Of a stretch of DNA of 20,500 bases, positions 1 through 19,992 are shown piece after piece (position 1 is the first letter of the stretch; each line of letters opens with the position of its first letter). A program made the position numbers and the translations under genes. This DNA is from a virus (Duplodnaviria; Heunggongvirae; Uroviricota; Caudoviricetes), in IMG/VR virus record IMGVR_UViG_2778261532_000014; one strand, written 5' to 3'. The notes under the pieces were generated by a model. The model was not told the origin of the DNA. It saw nothing but the letters and a program-made list of their open reading frames with translations, and made no database searches.

Positions 1-1224
1 ATGGCGCTGTCTGATGCGTGGTTGCGTTCAGTCGTTGGAAAGGAACGTGATAAGGTTTTGGTTAAATCCGATCGTGATGGTCTGTCTGTCAGAGTATCAC
101 CGAAAGGTCGCGTAGTGTTCCAATATCGTTATCAATGGGCAGGGAAAGGTGAGCGTCTTGATATCGGAACTTACCCGGCAACTGGATTAAAAGAGGCCAG
201 AGAAGAAGTTATCCGTCTCCGTGGTGAACTCGAGTCAAACCGTAATCCACGATTGGTCAAGCAGGCTGAAAAACGAAAAGCTACTGAAGCCATGACGGTA
301 GAGTCTGTGATCCGTGCCTGGTATGAAGCATATTGTGTAAAAAATAAAAAAGGCTCTGAACAGATACTCCGCTCGTTTGAGCTGCACCTGTTCTCTAAAA
401 TCGGAAATATCCCTCACGATGCAGCTACATTGCATGATTGGTTAGAAGTCCTGGAGCCTCTTAGCACCAAGACTCCAGCAATAGCAGACCGATTGCTAAT
501 TAACGCAAAGCAGGCCCATGTCTGGGCGTATAAGAGAAAGCTCATTGAAACTCGCCCGCTGTCGGATATCACGGGTAAAGATATGGATATCCGTAAAGGT
601 CAGAAGAAACGGTTTCTGACACATGATGAAATTAAAATCCTTTATGCTGCGATCGATGGTTCTCGAATGGTTCCTAAATACCGGGCCTTCATTAAACTAT
701 TGCTGCATTTTGGCTGCCGTAGTTCAGAGCTAATTACCGCCAGGGTGGACGATTTTGATTTCATTAATAAAGTATGGACTGTACCACCAGAACGACATAA
801 GATTGGGGAGATAACGGGCGAACCGCTAAAGCGGCCCATTATTGAACCGGTTGAAGAGCTTATAAAGTACGCTATTTCTATGAACAATGGTTCCGATATG
901 CTTTTTACTAAGGAAGGAAGCAGGGAACCCGTTGGTCGGACATCATTGCAGTCGCTGCCTTACAATTTAATGCAGTACGCATGGCGGCGTTTGGGGTATC
1001 AATTCCCTCATTGGTCTCTTCATGATTTGAGGCGAACAGCACGAACAAACTTTTCTGATCTTACTGCGCCTCATATTGCAGAAATAATGCTAGGTCATAA
1101 ACTGCCAGGGGTATGGCAAGTTTATGACAAGAGCGATTATCTAGAAGAACAGCGTAAAGCCTACCAGGCATGGTGGGAGAGGGTTGAATTGATAGTTGCT
1201 TGTATTAGCTCAGACCCCAACTGA
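1..1224 (+). CDS. Phage tyrosine integrase (P4/IntA-like site-specific recombinase)
   Basis: 407-aa ORF beginning at window position 1; N-terminal arm-binding-like region; C-terminal catalytic signatures (GCRSSEL Arg box, HDLRRT His-x-x-Arg box, Tyr near C-terminus). May lack a few N-terminal codons if the true start lies upstream of the window. Confidence 0.9.
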   Translation: MALSDAWLRSVVGKERDKVLVKSDRDGLSVRVSPKGRVVFQYRYQWAGKGERLDIGTYPATGLKEAREEVIRLRGELESNRNPRLVKQAEKRKATEAMTVESVIRAWYEAYCVKNKKGSEQILRSFELHLFSKIGNIPHDAATLHDWLEVLEPLSTKTPAIADRLLINAKQAHVWAYKRKLIETRPLSDITGKDMDIRKGQKKRFLTHDEIKILYAAIDGSRMVPKYRAFIKLLLHFGCRSSELITARVDDFDFINKVWTVPPERHKIGEITGEPLKRPIIEPVEELIKYAISMNNGSDMLFTKEGSREPVGRTSLQSLPYNLMQYAWRRLGYQFPHWSLHDLRRTARTNFSDLTAPHIAEIMLGHKLPGVWQVYDKSDYLEEQRKAYQAWWERVELIVACISSDPN

Positions 1225-1492
1225 CCGTTTGCATAGCTAGAACGAAATAAAATCTGACAGTCCGCTTTGAGCGACAACTAGACCTCAAAATATCTGTTGG
1301 ATAATGGGGACAAAATACAATTTAAAAAACATATGCTTAATAAGCAACTTATTTTGTTTAAATTTATGAAACACTCTCTAAATTATCTCTTATGATTTAA
1401 CATTCTTTCTCTATCACATGTGTAAAAATATGGTTAAAAATGTTAACCAAGATGCATTATTAATGTGTTGATTTTTAAGGTTGTTTTTGTTT

Positions 1493-1520
1493 GCGCCTTG
1501 AATGCAAGGCGCTATTTATC
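1493..1520 (+). terminator. Possible hairpin terminator downstream of int
   Basis: 8-bp stem gcgccttg/caaggcgc with 4-nt loop followed by TATTTAT; weak U-tract, abuts the stop of the minus-strand gene at 1519. Confidence 0.3.
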
Positions 1521-2013
1521 AAGATAGTCTATTCAGATCAGTATTAGGTGTGTTTCTTTTTGATGCAAAGATGGATTTGAATCTTTTTGAGTAACTATCA
1601 AAAAACCATTTTGTATAATTACCTTCAATTTCCTCTAATATTGAATACTTCATCTCATGAAGTTCATTTTTATAATCACACTTTTTGCTTAACAAGTCTA
1701 AAGGTGTTGATCTGATAGATGACAACTGTTCATCACATAATAATTTCTTACCAATCCTTTGTGATAAATGAGACAGCTGCATTTCAATTAATGAGACACT
1801 GGAGGCTAAAAAATTATCCAACTCTAATTCTTTAGTATCTCTAGAAGAGAGCTTATCTAAAACATTATCAAAAAGAGATTCTATTTGCTGACAGATTTTA
1901 TCCTTTTGCCTTGAAATATCATTTCGCTTGAATGCTCTATTGTTGAAATAAGACGCAACAAGCCAACCAATTATAGCAATTACAATACTTGTATAATTAA
2001 CCTCTTCCTGCAT
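1519..2013 (-). CDS. Hypothetical protein with one N-terminal transmembrane helix (third gene of cargo operon)
   Basis: ORF in frame; ATG at 2013 (GTG at 2016 also possible); hydrophobic segment YTSIVIAIIGWLVASYF then charged coiled-coil-like region; overlaps upstream gene by 17 nt, suggesting translational coupling; AT-rich codon usage unlike flanking phage genes. Confidence 0.6.
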   Translation of the reverse strand: MQEEVNYTSIVIAIIGWLVASYFNNRAFKRNDISRQKDKICQQIESLFDNVLDKLSSRDTKELELDNFLASSVSLIEMQLSHLSQRIGKKLLCDEQLSSIRSTPLDLLSKKCDYKNELHEMKYSILEEIEGNYTKWFFDSYSKRFKSIFASKRNTPNTDLNRLS

Positions 2014-2329
2014 CACTCTCTGCCTTATTCAATCGTTCATCAATCAAGGTCTCAATACTCTTAATATCTTTATGAGTATAAGTTAGTTTTTTCTTAAGTT
2101 CGCTTAATGTGTAGCCTTCTACTCGGATCAAGCCACCAAACGCTTCATCAATAAATGAACGCCCATAACGGTTATATCCAGTCAACTCAACATGAACTAA
2201 ATCATACTCTTTGAGAAAGCCTGCCAGATATTTGCGAAAGTTTTCCCCACAGCCTGCCCCATCGTCTGGATAGCGCCCGTAAGGCTTACTGTTGAAGTCT
2301 TTGATAACATTGATATTTTTAGTCTTCAT
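1997..2329 (-). CDS. STAS-like (DUF4325-type, anti-sigma-factor-antagonist-like) small protein
   Basis: 110-aa ORF; AAGG RBS upstream of ATG at 2329; overlaps upstream ATPase gene by 11 nt; sequence pattern (YGRYPDDG...SFIDEAFGGL) recalled as typical of DUF4325/STAS-like proteins that pair with GHKL ATPases. Family assignment from memory, not a search. Confidence 0.6.
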   Translation of the reverse strand: MKTKNINVIKDFNSKPYGRYPDDGAGCGENFRKYLAGFLKEYDLVHVELTGYNRYGRSFIDEAFGGLIRVEGYTLSELKKKLTYTHKDIKSIETLIDERLNKAESDAGRG

Positions 2330-3428
2330 AGCTGACCTTGATGTTCCACTGAATTAAAGTACCTGGTACTTTATGAGTTAACTCATTAATTTTATCACCT
2401 TTCTTATTAGAAAGCTTGAACATACCTAAATTACTGTAAATCCAAAGATTTCCATGTTCATTATTTAGTACTAGAGCTTTAATACTCTTACTTCCTTGAC
2501 CATGTTTATCATTGGCTGTACCGGTTACGTCTCCAATCATAGAAATTGCTATTTTTACTGCATCAGAAACAATACCTACTTTTACTTTAGAGCGCTCTTT
2601 ATAACCTAAACCTATTCTCTCAAGTTCTTCGTTAACCGCAACCTTTAGATCTGGATATTTTGATTTGAGCGTACTCATAAACCATGTCTTTTGCATTACA
2701 GTTTCAGGTATACCAACACCTTCATCATATATAGCAAGATAAAGCTGGTCATGAATTACGTGACATGCAAGCCACCATCGTTTCTCATCATTATTTTTAT
2801 GCGGATAGGCGTGTAAACCAACATTATTTATTGCTTCCTGAACAGCATCTGCATATGTATGTTCTGTTTCAGGTTTCATCTTGTTTTTATAAATTTCTTT
2901 CTGGATGAAATCTATAATCTCATCTCTATATTCTCCTCCTACCCCGCTAATAATGGGCAAGTTTTCAACGTTTTCGAAGACAGGTTTTAATTTTTCGCCC
3001 CGACATAAGGCGACAAGACCTGAGTCTCTTAAAAGCTGATTAACTTTAAAATCTGTTGAAAATAATAATCTGTACGATAAACCTTTACGAATTGAAGTTT
3101 CAACACTGGCATAAAGTATTACTAATGCTGCCATTTTTATTGTTTTTGTATTTGTAAAATCTAAATATAATCTCTCATCAGGATTATATTTTATATTCCT
3201 GACGTGATTTATCGAGTGTAGAGAGTGCGCAAAAAAATTAGGCTTATCTGGTGAATATATTGAAAACTCAGATGGAAACCGAATAAAGGTATTATCTTTT
3301 TTCTTTTGAGATTTTTTTTGTTGACGAAACTGCGAATACTCTTTCCCTTGACGGGAAACACTTCGCTGCCATCTTTTAAAAGCCAGCCTAATTCTTACAC
3401 TTTTTTCCTTATTGGCCTTGTTTTCCAT
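2319..3428 (-). CDS. GHKL-superfamily ATPase / anti-sigma-factor-type Ser kinase-like protein with ~180-aa unknown N-terminal domain
   Basis: 369-aa ORF; AGGGGA RBS; Bergerat-fold motifs: N-box EAINNVGLHAY (SpoIIAB/RsbW-like E-x-x-N-x-x-x-H), G1 box DEGVGIP, G2-like GQGSKS; AT-rich. Confidence 0.8.
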   Translation of the reverse strand: MENKANKEKSVRIRLAFKRWQRSVSRQGKEYSQFRQQKKSQKKKDNTFIRFPSEFSIYSPDKPNFFAHSLHSINHVRNIKYNPDERLYLDFTNTKTIKMAALVILYASVETSIRKGLSYRLLFSTDFKVNQLLRDSGLVALCRGEKLKPVFENVENLPIISGVGGEYRDEIIDFIQKEIYKNKMKPETEHTYADAVQEAINNVGLHAYPHKNNDEKRWWLACHVIHDQLYLAIYDEGVGIPETVMQKTWFMSTLKSKYPDLKVAVNEELERIGLGYKERSKVKVGIVSDAVKIAISMIGDVTGTANDKHGQGSKSIKALVLNNEHGNLWIYSNLGMFKLSNKKGDKINELTHKVPGTLIQWNIKVSYED

Positions 3429-4206
3429 GTGTCCCCTATCAATATGCTGTTCTTTTCATACTACGAATGATAGTACAATTAAACCAAGATTGGTATACAG
3501 ACCACCCGTCGTCCAGCACAAAAATTTTGTTGGTGGTGAGGTTGAAAAACGCAGTTAAATCATATAGATATGGTTTCTTGAGTATAAAAATACCGTTCTT
3601 AGCCATGCTCAAGAACGGCTTGGTTTTGTTGTTGATAAAAATACTAAAGCTTTAACGAGTCTTAAATCAATATTGAAATAACAAAATCAAATTAATTAAC
3701 AAGAGGTTTATCATTGAAAAAATATAACCCAAGAAAAATCATTAATTTTGAGTTCCAATTAATACAAAATACAACTTAATAATGCTCATGAATATATTAA
3801 ATCATTAATGCAGATAGTATTATTACCGAATAGGAACACAGCAACTTAGCTTATTCTGCCCTATTTATACCACTGCTCCTGACCTTGTGTGGTAGCAGGA
3901 GCATCAGACCAGTCACGATTCTTGGGTTGCTGACTTGGGGCACGATCATTACTTGATACATTCTACTTTTCTTCCTTGAGAACCTTAATATTTCCATATG
4001 TCGCTACTTTACACTCCTGCTTTCAGGCCTACATTCATACGGGGTTCAGCGTGCTTTAAACTATACTTCGCTTACCATTAAAATATTGTATTTCTTAGTA
4101 TCAGCCGATGACTTTACCCTTTTGGGGCTCGGGACATTTTCTCTTGTATATTTCAGGAAAATATTAAATAACCATTTATCCATATAGTGATGTCAACTAA
4201 TAGCTA

Positions 4207-4401
4207 CTACTCAATAATTCCAGCAAATCTGTATATCTTGTGTGATGCCCATTTATTTGGGCAGGATTTAATATCCGGATCTGGAAAGTCAGGCCTGTAT
4301 TTCTGGCCCGTTCTCCTGTTTACACTGTTCCAGCGAAGAACAGTCGATACTGAAACGCCACAGAATTCGGCAACTTGTTTTGTTGTCATTAAGTTGTTCA
4401 T
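4207..4401 (-). CDS. Excisionase-family HTH DNA-binding protein (Xis/AlpA-like)
   Basis: 64-aa ORF; strong AGGAGG RBS; MTTKQVAEFCGVSVSTVLRW helix-turn-helix typical of excisionase/AlpA-type regulators; last gene of leftward operon on the integrase side. Confidence 0.8.
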   Translation of the reverse strand: MNNLMTTKQVAEFCGVSVSTVLRWNSVNRRTGQKYRPDFPDPDIKSCPNKWASHKIYRFAGIIE

Positions 4402-5180
4402 TACTTCACCTCCTGCGGCGGCTCCGGTAGCGGTATCCAGTGGGTTACTTTCGATGCCGGTTCTTCCCCATCGTCAGTAACTGCCCACCATTTGTTTCTC
4501 GACCAATCGTAATACCCTTCGAAGGTATCGCACTCAGTCCAGCCGTAAGACTTCCCCCAACACCAAACATACTGTTTATCATTCGGCATTCGCTCACTAC
4601 AGCTTATCCAACCACCCGGACTTACCGGAGAGTTGCCAGACAGCGCGTTCTGCAGCCGTTCCAGCTTAACGTATTCCTGAACCCTGTTTCCGTCGCACAC
4701 CTGAAGCCATTGCGCAGCCTTTTGCGCATCAGTGTGAAAGGCACAAGTGCGACCGTCATCAAATTGCATTTCGTAGAGGTCAGCAACTTGTTCAAACTGC
4801 GTGTGTGGTGACTTGTAAGTTTGGTTTACAGGTTCGGCACCATGAAGCATGGCGGCGCGGCAGGCGTTCCAGCCTTCATCAAAACCGACTATGCCATTAT
4901 TTAAAGACGGACGAGCATCTGGCACTACCGGCACTGGCTTGGCTATATATAGCGGCTGAACATACCAGCTCTTTGATAACCAACTGTCAGCAATGTTTTT
5001 ACTCCTCGTTATTGCCGGAATACCTAAGCCATTTTCTGAATGCAGCCATGCCACCGGCTCCTCTTCTAGCGATGCCAGAGCAATTTCATAAGCACGGCGC
5101 TCAATATCGTCTCGAACCTCTAGGCTGCTGATTCGTTCTTTGATTTCTTTAATCAGTTCTTTGTCGGTAAACGTGATCAT
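4401..5180 (-). CDS. DUF551 domain phage protein (yfdT-like position)
   Basis: 259-aa ORF; GGAGG RBS; C-terminal W-rich DUF551-like segment (WISCSERMPNDKQ...THWIPLPEPP); stop overlaps next start. Confidence 0.75.
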   Translation of the reverse strand: MITFTDKELIKEIKERISSLEVRDDIERRAYEIALASLEEEPVAWLHSENGLGIPAITRSKNIADSWLSKSWYVQPLYIAKPVPVVPDARPSLNNGIVGFDEGWNACRAAMLHGAEPVNQTYKSPHTQFEQVADLYEMQFDDGRTCAFHTDAQKAAQWLQVCDGNRVQEYVKLERLQNALSGNSPVSPGGWISCSERMPNDKQYVWCWGKSYGWTECDTFEGYYDWSRNKWWAVTDDGEEPASKVTHWIPLPEPPQEVK

Positions 5181-9678: not shown

Positions 9679-10511
9679 ACAGTTTAACGGCAAATAACCG
9701 TTTGTCGCAACAGCTGGTGGTCAGTGTCGCTGAACACCTGTTGTTACGGCATGAATGCAGATTACCAAATCACCTGGCTGTAAGTAACCACAGAGAACTT
9801 TACCTGACTGTGGGGGGCGAGTTGTGCAGGAACTTAACCGCTGGTTTCGTGACGGAAGAGGGCTTTATGTCCATGTTATTCGTTGGGAGCCAGAAACACA
9901 GCGCGTTATCTATCTTCGCAAAGACTACCCGCATGAGTGCTTTAGTCCTTTGTGGAAATTCAGGCGTGATTTTGTTGAGTGTGAAGGACCACCAGCACAT
10001 TGATTCTGCCATTCCGGGACGTTACACTGTTCAGGCACCTTATAAAGCGGGTGCCGGGATTGGCGTCCTGGAAATGTTATCGGCGATATATGACGCGCCA
10101 GCGTCTTTTTTATCGTCTGCGTCTGCGCACCCCCAAATTATGGTGGGCTGGACGGGGGCACCGAAAGGTGCGCCGGTTTCCGATAACGCCGGTTACGCCA
10201 ACCCCGTTCAGTTCACCACCAGCGAAATTGGCGTTTCCGGTGGTGAAGGTAATTCACTGTTATCGGAGGCTGTCATCATGGCTACTGTCCCAGCCCTCAC
10301 TCGTCTGAATGATGAAGACTTACATAAACTCAGTTATGTAACAACTGCACTACGTGCTCTGCGCAAGGTAACTCTTTCGGATCCGCAGGCGCATCAGGTT
10401 CTGGTAGAAACCCTTCTTAACTTGCAGGCTGAACGTATTCGTCTGGCGGATAAGGCTAATTTTCATATTCACCGTCTCCTGAATATCAGCGGAGGGCATC
10501 GTCATGCTTAA
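9675..10511 (+). CDS. Hypothetical protein(s); reading frame ambiguous in the first third
   Basis: 278-aa open frame with ATGA and ATGCTTAA overlaps at both ends; region 10010-10511 has clear coding periodicity; a protein-like alternative frame exists at 9788-10003 next to a G6 run (see findings). Confidence 0.45.
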   Translation: MNSLTANNRLSQQLVVSVAEHLLLRHECRLPNHLAVSNHRELYLTVGGELCRNLTAGFVTEEGFMSMLFVGSQKHSALSIFAKTTRMSALVLCGNSGVILLSVKDHQHIDSAIPGRYTVQAPYKAGAGIGVLEMLSAIYDAPASFLSSASAHPQIMVGWTGAPKGAPVSDNAGYANPVQFTTSEIGVSGGEGNSLLSEAVIMATVPALTRLNDEDLHKLSYVTTALRALRKVTLSDPQAHQVLVETLLNLQAERIRLADKANFHIHRLLNISGGHRHA

Positions 10512-14952: not shown

Positions 14953-14980
14953 AAAAAAGGGCATTTCTGCCCTTTTTAAA
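14953..14980. terminator. Bidirectional Rho-independent terminator between Q and the convergent cassette
   Basis: Hairpin gggca-tttc-tgccc flanked by A6 upstream and T5 downstream; serves the stop of Q (14952) and the stop of the minus-strand gene (14976). Confidence 0.7.
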
Positions 14981-15419
14981 TGTGGGGGAGTATCCAGTTT
15001 ACTTTTCTCCATGTAAAGGCAAAAGTTATTACTGAAATGATAAGAAGAGATAAAGATTCGATAATTAAAATAAATTCTATTTTTTCTCCATGTAACAATG
15101 TCTTTTCATTGGCAAACATTGCTATCAAAGCAATAACGCATGCCGTAATTAAAGATGCACCTGCGGTTAATAGATTTACAATAATAACTTGAAGTATGTT
15201 GTTGTTTTTTAATGCTTTTATTATTCCATTTGAGTTTTCGCTAGCAGCACTAAAAATTGATTTTGTGGCTAAAATAAAACCAAATAAAATACCGGATACA
15301 GTTGAAATAACCCCGGAGGCTGTAAGTATGTCAGCATGCCCCATCTGAGGGATATACCTCAGTAGGAACAAGGTGCAAAAAACACTTACAATCAGGTTTC
15401 TTAAGTATTTCAATAACAT
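14976..15419 (-). CDS. Four-TM small membrane protein (RexB-like candidate effector)
   Basis: 147-aa ORF with four predicted hydrophobic helices; 3-nt gap to upstream gene; very AT-rich. Confidence 0.7.
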   Translation of the reverse strand: MLLKYLRNLIVSVFCTLFLLRYIPQMGHADILTASGVISTVSGILFGFILATKSIFSAASENSNGIIKALKNNNILQVIIVNLLTAGASLITACVIALIAMFANEKTLLHGEKIEFILIIESLSLLIISVITFAFTWRKVNWILPHI

Positions 15420-15422
15420 ATC

Positions 15423-16364
15423 CTATACCTTCTTTTTGCTGATATCGTATTGCTTAAGGTATTCATTGTTATCAATTTTAGCAGAAATCATGGCTTGCAG
15501 AACATCACTATCAGTGCCATAACCATTAACGGTATATATGTTTTTTTCTGAAATGAGTACCTGATCAAGAAGACTTTGTTCAACGGTATTTTTGGGCTGT
15601 GTTACTGCCGCTTTTTTTACAATTCCCGGCATTTTTTCAAGGAGTTCTTTAATACCATCCTTAACGAGATCTGATAAATAACCTTTGACTTTTACTCTCC
15701 CTGATGCACGTCCCCTTAGATTTAACTTGAGACGTGTTCCACCCAGCCCTACCATCATATTTACCAGTTCCTTAGAAAATGAACTATTTAGCTGGTAATT
15801 TGTTGCATCAAAGTTCCTGGGAGCAGCCAGGACAATATCACAACTTCTCAAAGTACTTCCTGTTTCAAGTAGCTCTTTGACGCTCTCTTTTTTCCAGATG
15901 GCTTGGAATGAAAAGTTATTTCCAGGATTACCACTCTGGCTGTAAAGCAGATAAGCTAAATCCGATTCTTTCGGCCCAAGATGATTTTGAGTTAATATTA
16001 AAATATCACTATCGTAATAATATAAAAAATAGGTTCTTTCGACTATGTATTTTTTATCATCTAGTGGTATGTTGTGCTCATTCCAGTGTTCATCACCAAT
16101 ATAAGGAAGGAGATACTCTTCTCGTGAGCATGACATGTAGCCGAAGAAATATTTAGCTTTTGTATCTTTATTTATAAAAGCTATTTTTAACTTTTTATTT
16201 CTATAGATGGTATCAAAATGATTATTCGTAACGGTTACGCAAGTATTATACAGATTTTCAATTGCTTGCTTAGCAACTGAATGGCTGCGGATAGTCCCAG
16301 AACTGCTGGTGTAAAAACCAATTTTAAGTTTTTTTTGTTTCTTTGATTGCGCAATAGTAGCCAT
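15423..16364 (-). CDS. Hypothetical 313-aa cytoplasmic protein (candidate sensor partner of the 4-TM protein)
   Basis: AAGG RBS 7 nt upstream of ATG at 16364; Lys/Asn/Tyr-rich AT-rich composition; no motif I can assign. Confidence 0.7.
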   Translation of the reverse strand: MATIAQSKKQKKLKIGFYTSSSGTIRSHSVAKQAIENLYNTCVTVTNNHFDTIYRNKKLKIAFINKDTKAKYFFGYMSCSREEYLLPYIGDEHWNEHNIPLDDKKYIVERTYFLYYYDSDILILTQNHLGPKESDLAYLLYSQSGNPGNNFSFQAIWKKESVKELLETGSTLRSCDIVLAAPRNFDATNYQLNSSFSKELVNMMVGLGGTRLKLNLRGRASGRVKVKGYLSDLVKDGIKELLEKMPGIVKKAAVTQPKNTVEQSLLDQVLISEKNIYTVNGYGTDSDVLQAMISAKIDNNEYLKQYDISKKKV

Positions 16365-16997: not shown

Positions 16998-18056
16998 ATG
17001 AAAAATACTGTAAAAATAAACAGTGTTGATTTGATCAACGCTGATTGCCTGCATTTTATTCAGTCCCTGCCTGATGATTCCATTGACCTGATTGTTACCG
17101 ATCCGCCGTACTTCAAGGTGAAACCCAACGGCTGGGACAATCAGTGGAAAGGGGACGAAGGTTACCTTAAGTGGCTGGACCACTGTCTGGCCCAGTTCTG
17201 GCGGGTGTTGAAACCTGCCGGAAGCCTTTACCTGTTCTGTGGACATCGCCTGGCATCTGATATTGAGATCATGATGCGTGAACGTTTCAACGTGCTTAAC
17301 CATATCATCTGGGCGAAGCCGTCCGGACGTTGGAACGGGTGCAACAAGGAAAGCCTGCGGGCGTATTTTCCGGCAACAGAGCGCATTCTGTTTGCCGGAC
17401 ATTATCAGGGGCCATATCAGCTAAAAAATGATGGCTATGCGGCAAAGGGCAGGGCTCTGAAACAGCATGTGATGGCCCCGCTGATTTCTTACTTTTGTGA
17501 TGCGCGTGCGGCCCTGGGGATTACGGCAAAACAGATTGTGGATGCTACAGGAAAGAAAAACATGGTGTCGCACTGGTTCAGTGCCAGTCAGTGGCAGCTA
17601 CCGAATGAAAGCGATTATCTGAAATTACAGGCACTGTTTGCCCGAGTGGCAGAAGAGAAGCACCAGTGCGGAGAACTGGAAAAGCCACATTACCAACTGG
17701 TCAGCACATACAGTGAACTGAACCGGCAGTATACGGAACTGCTGAGTGAATATAAAAATTTGCGGCGGTATTTCGGTGTGACTGTGCAGGTGCCGTACAC
17801 CGATGTGTGGACGCATAAACCGGTGCAGTACTATCCCGGGAAGCACCCGTGCGAAAAACCGGCAGAAATGTTGCAGCAGATAATCAGCGCAAGCAGCCGT
17901 CCGGGAGACCTGGTTGCAGATTTCTTCATGGGGTCAGGTTCGACAGTCAAAGCAGCGATGGCGCAGGGACGTCGTGTGATTGGTGTTGAGCTGGAGACTG
18001 AGCGTTTTGAGCAGACGGTCAGGGAAGTACAGGATTTAGTCAGTCAGAACGGATGA
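16998..18056 (+). CDS. Orphan N6-adenine DNA methyltransferase (beta-class, DPPY motif)
   Basis: 352-aa ORF; motif IV TDPPYF near N-terminus and motif I FFMGSGST near C-terminus; no adjacent restriction endonuclease gene. Confidence 0.9.
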   Translation: MKNTVKINSVDLINADCLHFIQSLPDDSIDLIVTDPPYFKVKPNGWDNQWKGDEGYLKWLDHCLAQFWRVLKPAGSLYLFCGHRLASDIEIMMRERFNVLNHIIWAKPSGRWNGCNKESLRAYFPATERILFAGHYQGPYQLKNDGYAAKGRALKQHVMAPLISYFCDARAALGITAKQIVDATGKKNMVSHWFSASQWQLPNESDYLKLQALFARVAEEKHQCGELEKPHYQLVSTYSELNRQYTELLSEYKNLRRYFGVTVQVPYTDVWTHKPVQYYPGKHPCEKPAEMLQQIISASSRPGDLVADFFMGSGSTVKAAMAQGRRVIGVELETERFEQTVREVQDLVSQNG

Positions 18057-18096
18057 ACTTGCAGAATTAGTTACGTACCGTTATTATCCTGCGCCC

Positions 18097-18172
18097 GGCC
18101 CTTTAGCTCAGTGGTTAGAGCGAGCGACTCATAATCGCCAGGTCGCTGGTTCAAATCCAGCAAGGGCCACCA
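18097..18172 (+). tRNA. tRNA-Ile2 (anticodon CAU; ileX/ileZ-like; Met not excluded)
   Basis: 76 nt; perfect 7-bp acceptor stem, D-arm GCTC/GAGC, anticodon loop CTCATAA, T-arm GCTGG-TTCAAAT-CCAGC, encoded CCA; close to E. coli ileX as recalled. Confidence 0.85.
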
Positions 18173-18174
18173 TT

Positions 18175-18251
18175 CCGCCACCAGCTCATCTGGATAGAGC
18201 ATCAGCCTTCTAAGTTGATTGTGCGAGGTTCGAGCACCCGGTGGCGGACCA
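18175..18251 (+). tRNA. tRNA-Arg (anticodon UCU, AGA-decoding) with imperfect T-stem
   Basis: 77 nt; perfect acceptor stem CCGCCAC/GTGGCGG, canonical D-arm, anticodon loop CTTCTAA, encoded CCA; T-stem has two mismatches including position 53-61. Confidence 0.6.
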
Positions 18252-18790
18252 TTCCATGCAAGTTTAGCTGGCAGCGCTATTAGCTCGGCGTAATTGGGAT
18301 ATTCGTCAGGCTCTGTTAGTTCACCATATTGCGTCATAGATTTTCTATCAACGATACAATTAACGTTAAATGTTGCAAAAACTCCTGCTGATGTAAGTCT
18401 TGCGATCTGTTATTCCCGGAGTGTTTCCTGTTATTTATTGCGACAACTGAATCAGTGTGTTCCCAAATCGTTTATATTTGTGTTAGTTTTTACGCAATCT
18501 CCTGTGCGAAATCAGAATTCTGGATGGAATAACATAAACTGTATGTAATTGATACAGATTTATACATATTTTTAAATCTGAAAACTAATTAGTTTTTGAT
18601 GTCATATGAATTATCGGTAATATTACTCCCGACCCGGAAGACAGCAAGTTTATGTTCACAGCGGTGTTCCCCGCTGTCTTGCGGTTCATTGTAGGCTTCC
18701 GTTCAATCATATTGAAGGTCTGTTATCAGTATCATTATTGTGGTTACGGAGGCCTGCTCTTTATTCAGGTATCGTATAGTAGCTATTACC

Positions 18791-18836
18791 GCAGCCTTCT
18801 GGGTTGGCGATGCAGGTTCGATTCCTGTTCTCCACA
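18791..18836 (+). other. tRNA-like 3' fragment (anticodon-arm-like plus T-arm with B-box)
   Basis: GCAGG-TTCGATT-CCTGT T-arm (B-box GGTTCGATTCC at 18815-18825) preceded by a loop CTTCTGG with UCU; no matching 5' acceptor strand or D-arm found. Confidence 0.35.
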
Positions 18837-18992
18837 ACTTCATTGTTTTATTTCTGACGGACTTTTACAGCACTGGCGGTTTTCCGAGTTGAATAATAGT
18901 TCAGGTTTTTTATTGTTCTCCATTCTGCAATAGCGGATACAGTGCTGTTCTTTTTTTTGTTCATGAAGTTGCGTTATTGGAAAAAAGTCGTT

Positions 18993-19068
18993 GCCAGAAT
19001 GAGTCGTTGCCTGTTTTGGTGCCTGCGATTTGCCAGAATTGCGTTGCAATCTGACGACTCATTCTGGC
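18993..19068. repeat. 15-bp perfect inverted repeat with 46-nt spacer
   Basis: gccagaatgagtcgt (18993-19007) and acgactcattctggc (19054-19068); the spacer contains a third gccagaat copy. Confidence 0.5.
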
Positions 19069-19122
19069 GGCGACCATACTTAAAATAAACGCTGTTCCAC
19101 TCTTACATGTTGAATGTGTTAG

Positions 19123-19147
19123 CCCGTCTCCGGACGGGTATTTTTTT
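19123..19147 (+). terminator. Rho-independent terminator
   Basis: cccgtc-tccg-gacggg hairpin followed by TA + T7. Confidence 0.65.
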
Positions 19148-19320
19148 GCCTGTAGCCAGGCCCGCTACTGCGAGCTTTTTTCATATCCGCGCCACGTCCG
19201 GTGCACATCAAAAACCACAGAGCCTTTCAGGGGGGGGGAGCTTACGGGATGGTCGGTGTGACTTTCTCTGTGGGCTGCTCATCCCGGGGCGAGGCTCTCC
19301 CACTAAAAGGAAACGTCACG

Positions 19321-19746
19321 ATGTTTGGTATTTTCAAAAAGAAAACCTGCAAGGCGATTGTTGAGGTGAAGAAGATGGAAAATCGCGATGCGGTGGAAGC
19401 GACCGTCTGGGGCGCATATTCCATTGCATATGCTGACGGTACCTGCGACGCGAAAGAAATCGCAGTGCTGGAGAAAACCATTGCAGCACTTCCGGCCTTT
19501 GCGCTGTTCTCAGGTGAGATTGCCCAGATGAGCGCCAATATCCGCGCCCGTTATGAAGCATCCCCGCGTTCTGCCAATGCTGAAGCCCTCCGTCAGCTGG
19601 CTGACGTGGCAGGGACAACAGAGGCGGTTGACGTACTGTGCCTCTGTCTGGATATCGCTGACCAGGATAGCATTAGTCCGGATGAAGAAGCGCAGCTCAA
19701 GAAAATTGCACAGGCGCTTCAGTTACCACTGGAGCAGTATCTGTGA
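19321..19746 (+). CDS. TerB-like (tellurite-resistance TerB family) protein
   Basis: 141 aa from ATG 19321 with AAGGA RBS; paired-helix pattern with conserved acidic positions resembles the TerB fold; the longer ORF from 19201 lacks an RBS. Confidence 0.7.
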   Translation: MFGIFKKKTCKAIVEVKKMENRDAVEATVWGAYSIAYADGTCDAKEIAVLEKTIAALPAFALFSGEIAQMSANIRARYEASPRSANAEALRQLADVAGTTEAVDVLCLCLDIADQDSISPDEEAQLKKIAQALQLPLEQYL

Positions 19747-19992
19747 AAAGTGCACGTCTTGTGCTGGCTGCCATCCTGCTGTTTCTGGTAGTGGCAGTAG
19801 ATTTTGCCGGACGGCTGATGTCGGTTCTGGCTGATGGCGTGCTGGTAGCGATGGTGATGGTTGTTCTCTGGCCTTTACTGCGCAAATCTGAATAACACCA
19901 CACAAAAGGCATCTGTGGGTGCAGGTGTCTTTGACGGGGTGTTTTTTGGTGGGCCGCTGGTGGCTCTTTTTTATTTACAGGAGAAAAAAGGT

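Follow-up and report, generated by a model that had tools for sequence, protein, structure and literature searches.

A tRNA cluster in the late region of a lambdoid prophage

The window, by which we mean the whole 20,500-nt stretch of DNA analysed here, carries two tRNA genes, referred to below as tRNA1 and tRNA2, that lie 2 nt apart and each encode their own CCA end (Table 1). ARAGORN placed this tRNA(CAU) and tRNA-Arg(UCU) at 18097-18251, the same coordinates as those given in the initial annotation of this DNA, and Rfam called both genes as well; identical sequences are annotated as tRNA-Ile and tRNA-Arg in complete genomes by RefSeq/PGAP. The position of the pair 3' of an antitermination gene Q and a methyltransferase gene, also proposed at the outset, was confirmed by Pfam. 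Together, Pfam and PGAP give the gene order Q, DNA methylase, tRNAs, TerB, DUF3927, two holins and endolysin, in which the TerB and DUF3927 genes stand 3' of the tRNA region and 5' of the holins, and the Q homologue in a sister copy of the prophage was named 'antiterminator Q family protein' by PGAP. The methylase gene ends 40 nt before the start of tRNA1, and a terminator scan of the interval from methylase to tRNA1 (18056-18097) predicted none. The locus is the known tRNA cluster of Shiga-toxin (Stx)-type lambdoid E. coli prophages, situated between the Q antiterminator and the lysis genes, and it comprises three elements: an intact tRNA-Ile(CAU), a damaged tRNA-Arg(UCU) and the dead remnant of a tRNA-Gly. 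As this type of cluster is well known in Stx-type lambdoid prophages, its presence here is ordinary.

Over segment 18050-19900 the window shares 100% identity with E. coli NZ_OZ282453 and 99.9% with strain EC416, and the arrangement found in the window occurs in only 8 of 5,426 complete E. coli genomes, most of which are porcine ETEC. The sister prophage copy spans from an integrase adjoining yjjG to the tail-fibre genes, with the tRNAs mid-way. At 74-4724 of NZ_OZ282453 (L129), the tail-fibre gene of this copy is truncated and its recombinase gene frameshifted, beside a TIR-domain anti-phage reverse transcriptase; the two pseudogenes fit a degrading prophage, and the sister copy is probably defective.

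Table 1. Features of the tRNA region and its landmarks in the window
Feature	Coordinates	Strand	Evidence and remarks
Integrase	1-1224		~17 kb from the tRNAs
Antitermination protein Q, 125 aa	14575-14952	+	Pfam PF06530 Phage_antitermQ, 175 bits; upstream landmark of the late region
N6/N4 DNA methyltransferase, 352 aa	16998-18056	+	Pfam PF01555, 149 bits; annotated DNA-methyltransferase
tRNA1, ileZ-type tRNA-Ile2, anticodon CAU, CCA encoded, intact	18097-18172	+	ARAGORN; Rfam RF00005 72.7 bits, E 1.8e-14
tRNA2, argN-family tRNA-Arg, anticodon UCU, CCA encoded	18175-18251	+	ARAGORN; Rfam RF00005 32.3 bits, E 0.0024, gathering score 29
AT-rich non-coding spacer	18252-18764	+	3' part (from ~18550) homologous to the leader of prophage tRNA-Gly genes
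Full-length tRNA-Gly(UCC) relic	~18765-18836	+	Aligns end to end with intact prophage tRNA-Gly genes
Long imperfect hairpin, unannotated	18987-19074	+	Inverted repeat, 21-nt arms (18987-19007, 19054-19074), 90% complementary
Intrinsic-terminator-like hairpin	19122-19146 (stem 19122-19139 + T7)	+	Terminator scan; 7 pairs, 5 G-C, then ATTTTTTT
Second terminator-like hairpin	19159-19181	+	Point where homology with the ileZ-argN-argO layout resumes
TerB-family gene	19321-19746	+	Pfam PF05099; PGAP
DUF3927 gene	19743-19895	+	Pfam PF13064, 57 bits; PGAP

Conservation of the ileZ-type gene and rare-codon usage

The isotype of tRNA1 was given as tRNA-Ile by PGAP, and its place in a lambdoid prophage, after Q/methylase and before the lysis genes, is the one expected for the ileZ type. 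It matches K-12 ileX at 69 of 76 positions (91%); the change at pair 6-67 is compensatory, and C4-G69 and C5-G68, which we take from published work to be determinants for TilS, are kept. Between the window and three sister lineages tRNA1 differs at 0-1 of 76 positions (0-1.3%), as against 13-15% divergence in the non-coding spacer beside it in the same lineages (Fisher p 7e-5 to 9e-4). These comparisons of sequence indicate that tRNA1 is an intact ileZ-type tRNA-Ile2 under purifying selection. We infer that it would be co-transcribed with the methylase and the late transcript and matured by host RNase P plus 3' processing and, from its family, that its C34 would be converted to lysidine by host TilS before charging with isoleucine, and that the lysidine-modified tRNA would then read the rare codon AUA.

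The suggestion that the cluster supplies tRNAs for rare AUA and AGA/AGG codons was only modestly borne out. Counted in the sister prophage copy against a 20-kb K-12 sample as reference, AUA, AGA and AGG occur at 4.0, 3.2 and 3.3 per 1000 codons in late genes and at 3.6, 0.6 and 0.6 in the K-12 sample; early genes (8.7, 7.0 and 3.5) and the four prophage cargo genes (18.4, 7.7 and 8.2) are richer in each of these codons. A rare-codon rationale is plausible, and it has more force for early genes and cargo than for genes of structural proteins.

The second tRNA belongs to the argN family

The pair had been likened to the ileZ-argN-argO cluster of Stx phages, and the region from the methylase to tRNA2 is indeed homologous to it, with 87-88% nucleotide identity to many Stx2 phages in which ileZ and argN are annotated at this place; the likeness needs refining in that the Arg(UCU) gene is an argN-family member and argO is missing. 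tRNA2 starts 2 nt after the ileZ-type tRNA1, directly 3' of it as argN does. It is 81% identical to argN(UCG), 86% identical to alleles with a UUU anticodon and 92% identical to a sister UCU allele carried by strain VG48B2 and seven IMG/VR contigs, as against 64-65% identity to argO and 73% to K-12 argU. As its identities to the argN relatives and to the sister allele stand above all others, tRNA2 is assigned to the argN family as a gene with a UCU anticodon; identification as argO, to which it is 64% identical, was rejected. The UCU anticodon itself departs from the UCG of canonical argN; where the acceptor and anticodon stems differ from those of argN, the changes compensate for one another. 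ArgRS recognises A20 and C35, and reading of the sequence shows that tRNA2 has both of these arginine identity elements, A20 in the D loop (ATCTGGATA) and C35 in the anticodon TCT. We propose that the anticodon became UCU in this lineage and that tRNA2 would have read AGA, and AGG by wobble, taking the role of the missing argO.

Damage to the T arm of tRNA2

Alignment to the Rfam model confirmed the two T-stem mismatches reported initially: tRNA2 has fully paired acceptor, D and anticodon stems and two non-standard pairs, A51.C63 and G53.A61, in a T stem of which three of five pairs remain. Position 8 is C. Elongator tRNAs almost always have U8 and C61. In its T loop, tRNA2 retains U54, U55, C56 and A58. 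By contrast with the window allele, the sister allele is a perfect cloverleaf with U8, C61 and a T stem of CGAGG/CCUCG, and the two differ at 6 of 77 positions: U8C, one D-loop base, A30G (which turns an A-U pair into G.U), U60C, C61A and U63C. Among these, C63, and hence A51.C63, is common to the UUU alleles and the window allele; C8 recurs only in a few UUU alleles; and C61A was found in the window allele only, among all alleles sampled. At 32.3 bits the window allele scores 25 bits under the sister allele (57.8 bits), canonical argN scoring 56-58 bits and the UUU allele 44 bits. When folded with ViennaRNA, the sister allele adopts the canonical cloverleaf in both the minimum-energy and the centroid structure, as against a fold of the window allele that lacks a canonical T arm and has a shifted four-pair GUGC/GCAC hairpin in the minimum-energy structure only.

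The window allele is identical in all eight complete genomes and all three IMG/VR contigs that carry it, where the flanks are 96.5-100% identical, and it is confined to one prophage lineage. Haplotypes intermediate between the window and sister alleles were sought and none was found, and a scan of species-representative genomes for the T arm and 3' end of either allele gave no matches, a result that is uninformative beyond E. coli strains. Divergence between the window and sister tRNA2 amounts to 7.8%, which is not distinguishable from that of the spacer (p 0.11-0.20) and is higher than that of ileZ in just one of three comparisons, that with L134 (p 0.03; p 0.12 in the other two), the test having low power at 6 of 77 positions. 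By these sequence comparisons the T-stem defect is real and derived. The predicted fold and the bases lost suggest that tRNA2 is probably impaired or non-functional and at an early stage of decay: after the change of anticodon to UCU, bases at universally conserved positions would have been lost (U8 to C and C61 to A), which together with A51.C63 would leave a tRNA that functions poorly or not at all.

A tRNA-Gly module in the position of argO

Alignment with the non-Stx relative L003 and with phiP27 indicated that homology with the canonical layout ends at the end of tRNA2 and resumes at the hairpin at 19159, such that a 907-nt segment occupies the position of argO. Local alignments in search of a relic of argO or of tRNA-Thr(UGU) within 18241-18800 scored within the range of shuffled controls. 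The first 633 nt of the segment share 85% identity with VG48B2 (L004 2501-3136), and from ~18550 the sequence shares 71% identity with a module in strain C5 upstream of its tRNA-Gly, where an AT-rich leader, a tRNA-Gly(UCC), a long hairpin and a terminator follow one another. The open reading frames in this part of the window (18294-18548, 18652-18933 and 18840-19049 on the minus strand) have no Pfam match and no PGAP annotation, and Rfam matches in the spacer to PhrS (21 bits) and Ysr49 (16.6 bits) fall far under the cut-offs and were taken as chance.

A tRNA-like 3' fragment at 18791-18836 had been suggested to be a decayed third tRNA of the cluster. The fragment was confirmed and forms the 3' portion of a full-length relic, which stems from a tRNA-Gly(UCC) and not from an Arg tRNA. 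In this relic the D and T arms are recognisable, three of the seven base pairs of the acceptor stem are disrupted, and TCT stands in place of the anticodon. It could be aligned with five intact or relic copies from the D arm through the 3' acceptor strand, and its core shares 81% identity with genes annotated as tRNA-Gly in many genomes. Rfam gave a partial match without the acceptor stem (18771-18829; 23.1 bits, under the cut-off of 29), as compared with 31.8 bits for the VG48B2 homologue, the ARAGORN scan left 18765-18836 uncalled and the z-score of the fold is -0.55. As the relic has decayed in the sister lineages too, the Gly copy died before the damage to tRNA2. These comparisons suggest that a tRNA-Gly module consisting of leader, tRNA, long hairpin and terminator arrived and replaced argO, and that its tRNA-Gly(UCC) is now dead.

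The long hairpin downstream of the relic matches no Rfam family. A consensus fold of seven copies kept six pairs through two-sided changes, and the terminator at 19122-19146 is conserved in seven of seven copies. This hairpin and terminator element (18987-19146) might act as a small RNA of the phage or as a site for processing of the RNase III type. Of 5,426 E. coli genomes, just 25 contain it; the inspected prophage copies are placed ~150-250 nt 3' of a tRNA-Gly or its relic and 5' of the holin, no tRNA-Gly is annotated with the copy in strain RM8082, and one copy is found on plasmid pGPT24-02-A, 130 nt after an IS200/IS605 tnpA. Further downstream, a 92-nt 'tRNA-Arg' called by ARAGORN at 19752-19843 was rejected as a false positive: its whole span falls within the DUF3927 gene, and Rfam gave no tRNA match for it at E values up to 10.

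Comparison with related tRNA clusters

The ileZ-argN-argO cluster of Stx2 phages of the 933W/Sakai type and of their non-Stx relatives occupies the same slot, after Q and the methylase and before the toxin or cargo and lysis genes, its ileZ is nearly identical to tRNA1, and its argN is homologous to tRNA2 and likewise lies directly after ileZ. A typical non-Stx relative, L003, has the order methylase, ileZ, argN(TCG), argO(TCT), terminator, TerB, DUF3927 and holin. In contrast, the window has neither argO nor a toxin gene, the gap between ileZ and the next tRNA is 2 nt instead of the 7-9 nt of the canonical cluster, the T arm of its argN-family gene is damaged where that of canonical argN is not, and the remnant of the tRNA-Gly module stands at the argO site. 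The best phage match over the whole late region (methylase, ileZ and holins) is the Stx2e phage phiP27, which resembles the window in having a decayed gene directly after ileZ. However, the argN copy of phiP27 is rearranged beyond recognition and is followed by an intact argO and then stx2e, whereas in the window the argN-family copy can still be called and argO is gone.

The closest arrangement is that of VG48B2 and IMG/VR contigs L130-L138, which share with the window the same ileZ, the 2-nt gap, a tRNA-Arg(UCU), the spacer and the tRNA-Gly relic; the difference lies in the tRNA-Arg(UCU), a perfect cloverleaf there. VG48B2 has, in addition to the relic, a second tRNA-Gly that is intact. Arrays of the LT-II/Stx2f type (for example phage SerU-LTIIb) hold Arg or Thr tRNAs together with Gly tRNAs in the same late-region slot, and represent the type from which the relic tRNA-Gly(UCC) of the window derives; their tRNA-Gly is intact and stands beside tRNA-Thr or tRNA-Arg, whereas the relic is dead and lies 513 nt from tRNA2. 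The host genes ileX and argU have the same anticodons and presumed decoding roles as tRNA1 and tRNA2 but are located at other loci. Every stx region has a set of tRNAs between q and stx that varies with the toxin subtype, and an Stx2f phage is reported to carry Thr and Gly tRNAs (PMC7366253); PMC7366253 and PMC7946995 provide useful background. The related Stx-like prophages L014, L017, L018, L025, L028 and L034 have copies of the small RNA STnc100 3' of the tRNA cluster, at up to 175 bits, and L018 has AgvB there; Rfam detected no STnc100 or AgvB copies downstream of the cluster in the window.

Variation and decay of the gene after ileZ

A sample of 122 other ileZ-linked loci, chosen by an exact match to ileZ and phylogenetically non-independent, was scored for the gene that follows ileZ. 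The gene is intact in 39 loci, has one defect in nine and at least two defects in 35, and has suffered indels or rearrangements in the remaining 39, in 37 of which an argN-like 5' end is still visible. Decay at the position after ileZ is common. Its anticodon also varies: among 83 scorable members of the argN family elsewhere, 65 have TCG, 16 have TTT and two have TCT. ARAGORN calls at this position are UCG, UCU, UUU or no tRNA, and RefSeq labels for the family, of which 1,255 E. coli genomes have a member, range from tRNA-Arg and tRNA-Lys to no annotation, as compared with argO, which scores 68-70 bits in Rfam where present. ARAGORN found the array Met(CAT)-Arg(TCG)-Arg(TCT) most often, in 57 of the 114 loci with enough downstream sequence, followed by Met-Arg(TCT) in 30, including phiP27, whose post-ileZ gene goes uncalled, and Met-Lys(TTT)-Thr(TGT)-Gly(TCC) in 10.

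Individual alleles of the family show further departures. The IMG/VR contig L025 carries a hybrid with the 5' half of argN and the 3' half of argO, joined at the anticodon loop and apparently made by recombinational deletion there; L034, also from IMG/VR, carries a point-mutant argN with anticodon TCT. The alleles with a TTT anticodon have C at position 33, where U is expected.

Alternative readings of the cluster

Taken together, our analysis favours a cluster of the phiP27/Stx type with an intact ileZ-type tRNA1, a decaying argN-family tRNA2 and a dead tRNA-Gly module, an account to which we give a probability of about 0.75. We considered whether the genes might instead be host chromosomal tRNA genes that mark an attachment site or the end of the prophage. 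tRNA genes do serve many prophages as integration sites, and at first sight the tRNA-Gly relic looks like the duplicated 3' end of a tRNA. However, the relic is full-length and not a 3' half, the pair lies ~17 kb inside the prophage with a phage methylase on one side and holins on the other, and neither gene is identical to its host counterpart, tRNA1 differing from ileX at seven positions and tRNA2 being 73% identical to argU. As they lie among phage genes and 17 kb from the integrase, the tRNAs are internal phage cargo, as the initial annotation had held; genomic context and non-identity to ileX refute a prophage boundary, to which we attach virtually no credence.

A possibility that deserves more weight, though we consider it unlikely, is that tRNA2 still decodes AGA/AGG, its T arm being held together by an A+.C wobble pair, a sheared G.A pair and tertiary contacts, and that it has been under selection since argO was lost. 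The gene scores above the Rfam gathering threshold and is accepted by the tRNA caller of PGAP, three of its stems are perfect, and that its acceptor and anticodon stems differ from argN by compensatory changes also speaks for a working tRNA. Some mismatches are tolerated in natural tRNAs, and A51.C63 may be one of them, since it is present in the common and widespread UUU alleles that score 44 bits. As argO is absent, tRNA2 is the only phage UCU tRNA left, which argues for some residual selection on it, and AGA/AGG codons occur at 3-8 per 1000 in prophage genes versus 0.6 each in the K-12 sample. The allele is moreover invariant across 11 genomes and contigs, one background having flanks of only 96.5% identity; because all carriers belong to a single prophage lineage, this invariance may only mirror recent common descent. 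Against a working tRNA stand the loss of both near-universal bases, U8 and C61, in this lineage only, the score 25 bits under that of the sister allele and the predicted fold without a T arm. We retain early decay as the preferred state of tRNA2. More speculative still, and in our view improbable, is a role for the post-ileZ gene as an anti-defence cassette, in which tRNA nucleases of the host or of rival phages would drive the turnover of UCG, UCU and UUU anticodons and of stem sequences, the window allele being a casualty or a decoy. Phage tRNAs are reported to evade defence nucleases or to stand in for the tRNAs that these cleave (PMC10264068, PMC11555353), and P2-OLD cleaves tRNAs in which positions 28-30 and 40-42 carry paired CNG motifs, the cell being rescued by a phage tRNA-Thr(UGU) (PMC12445682). 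At 28-30/40-42 canonical argN has CAG and CTG; both are absent from the sister allele, and of the two only CAG is present in the window allele. Alternative arrays after ileZ carry Lys(UUU)-Thr(UGU)-Gly(UCC). However, this support is purely correlative, most of the variation looks more like loss of conserved bases and indels than like directed change, and a decoding tRNA would not be expected to escape a nuclease through a broken T arm. Were nuclease pressure the cause, the UCU sub-lineage, which lacks the paired CNG motif, would be an escape variant from P2-OLD-like, PrrC-like or colicin-D-like enzymes, with the window allele as a decaying descendant of that variant or a non-decoding decoy.

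Significance and other prophage cargo

The locus in the window is a new allele and arrangement of a known type of cluster, and is of little importance alone, as identical tRNA genes are already in RefSeq and the earliest Stx phage genomes already revealed clusters of this type. In the literature collection searched, no paper treats ileZ, argN and argO together. For annotation, the UCU tRNA here should be read as an argN-family gene with a switched anticodon and not as argO, and decoding of AGA/AGG should not be assumed from the Arg tRNA of this mainly porcine-ETEC prophage lineage. The gene after ileZ, intact in about a third of the sampled prophages and found with at least three anticodons while ileZ and argO stay conserved, offers a convenient natural series on the identity switching and death of phage tRNA genes.

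The prophage carries further cargo at other sites. By the integrase, three genes at 1519-3428 on the minus strand encode proteins of 165 aa, 110 aa (with a DUF4325 STAS-like domain) and 369 aa, the last without a Pfam match; in the sister prophage copy, the anti-phage sirtuin Dsr1 lies between the integrase and the early genes, and the integrase-adjacent region looks like a hotspot for defence genes. A DUF6731 gene (313 aa) and a gene for a 147-aa protein at 14976-16364, also on the minus strand, are inserted between Q and the late genes, an unusual site for cargo as it separates Q from its presumed target promoter. PADLOC gave no matches for the neighbouring cargo genes at 1519-3428 and 14976-16364. 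Rfam detected isrK (63.7 bits) followed by the C4 antisense RNA (82.8 bits) at 10035-10223 on the plus strand, a pair that constitutes a P1/P7-type c4-antirepressor immunity module inside a lambdoid prophage; the same isrK-C4 pair is present in three tandem copies in IMG/VR contig L034.
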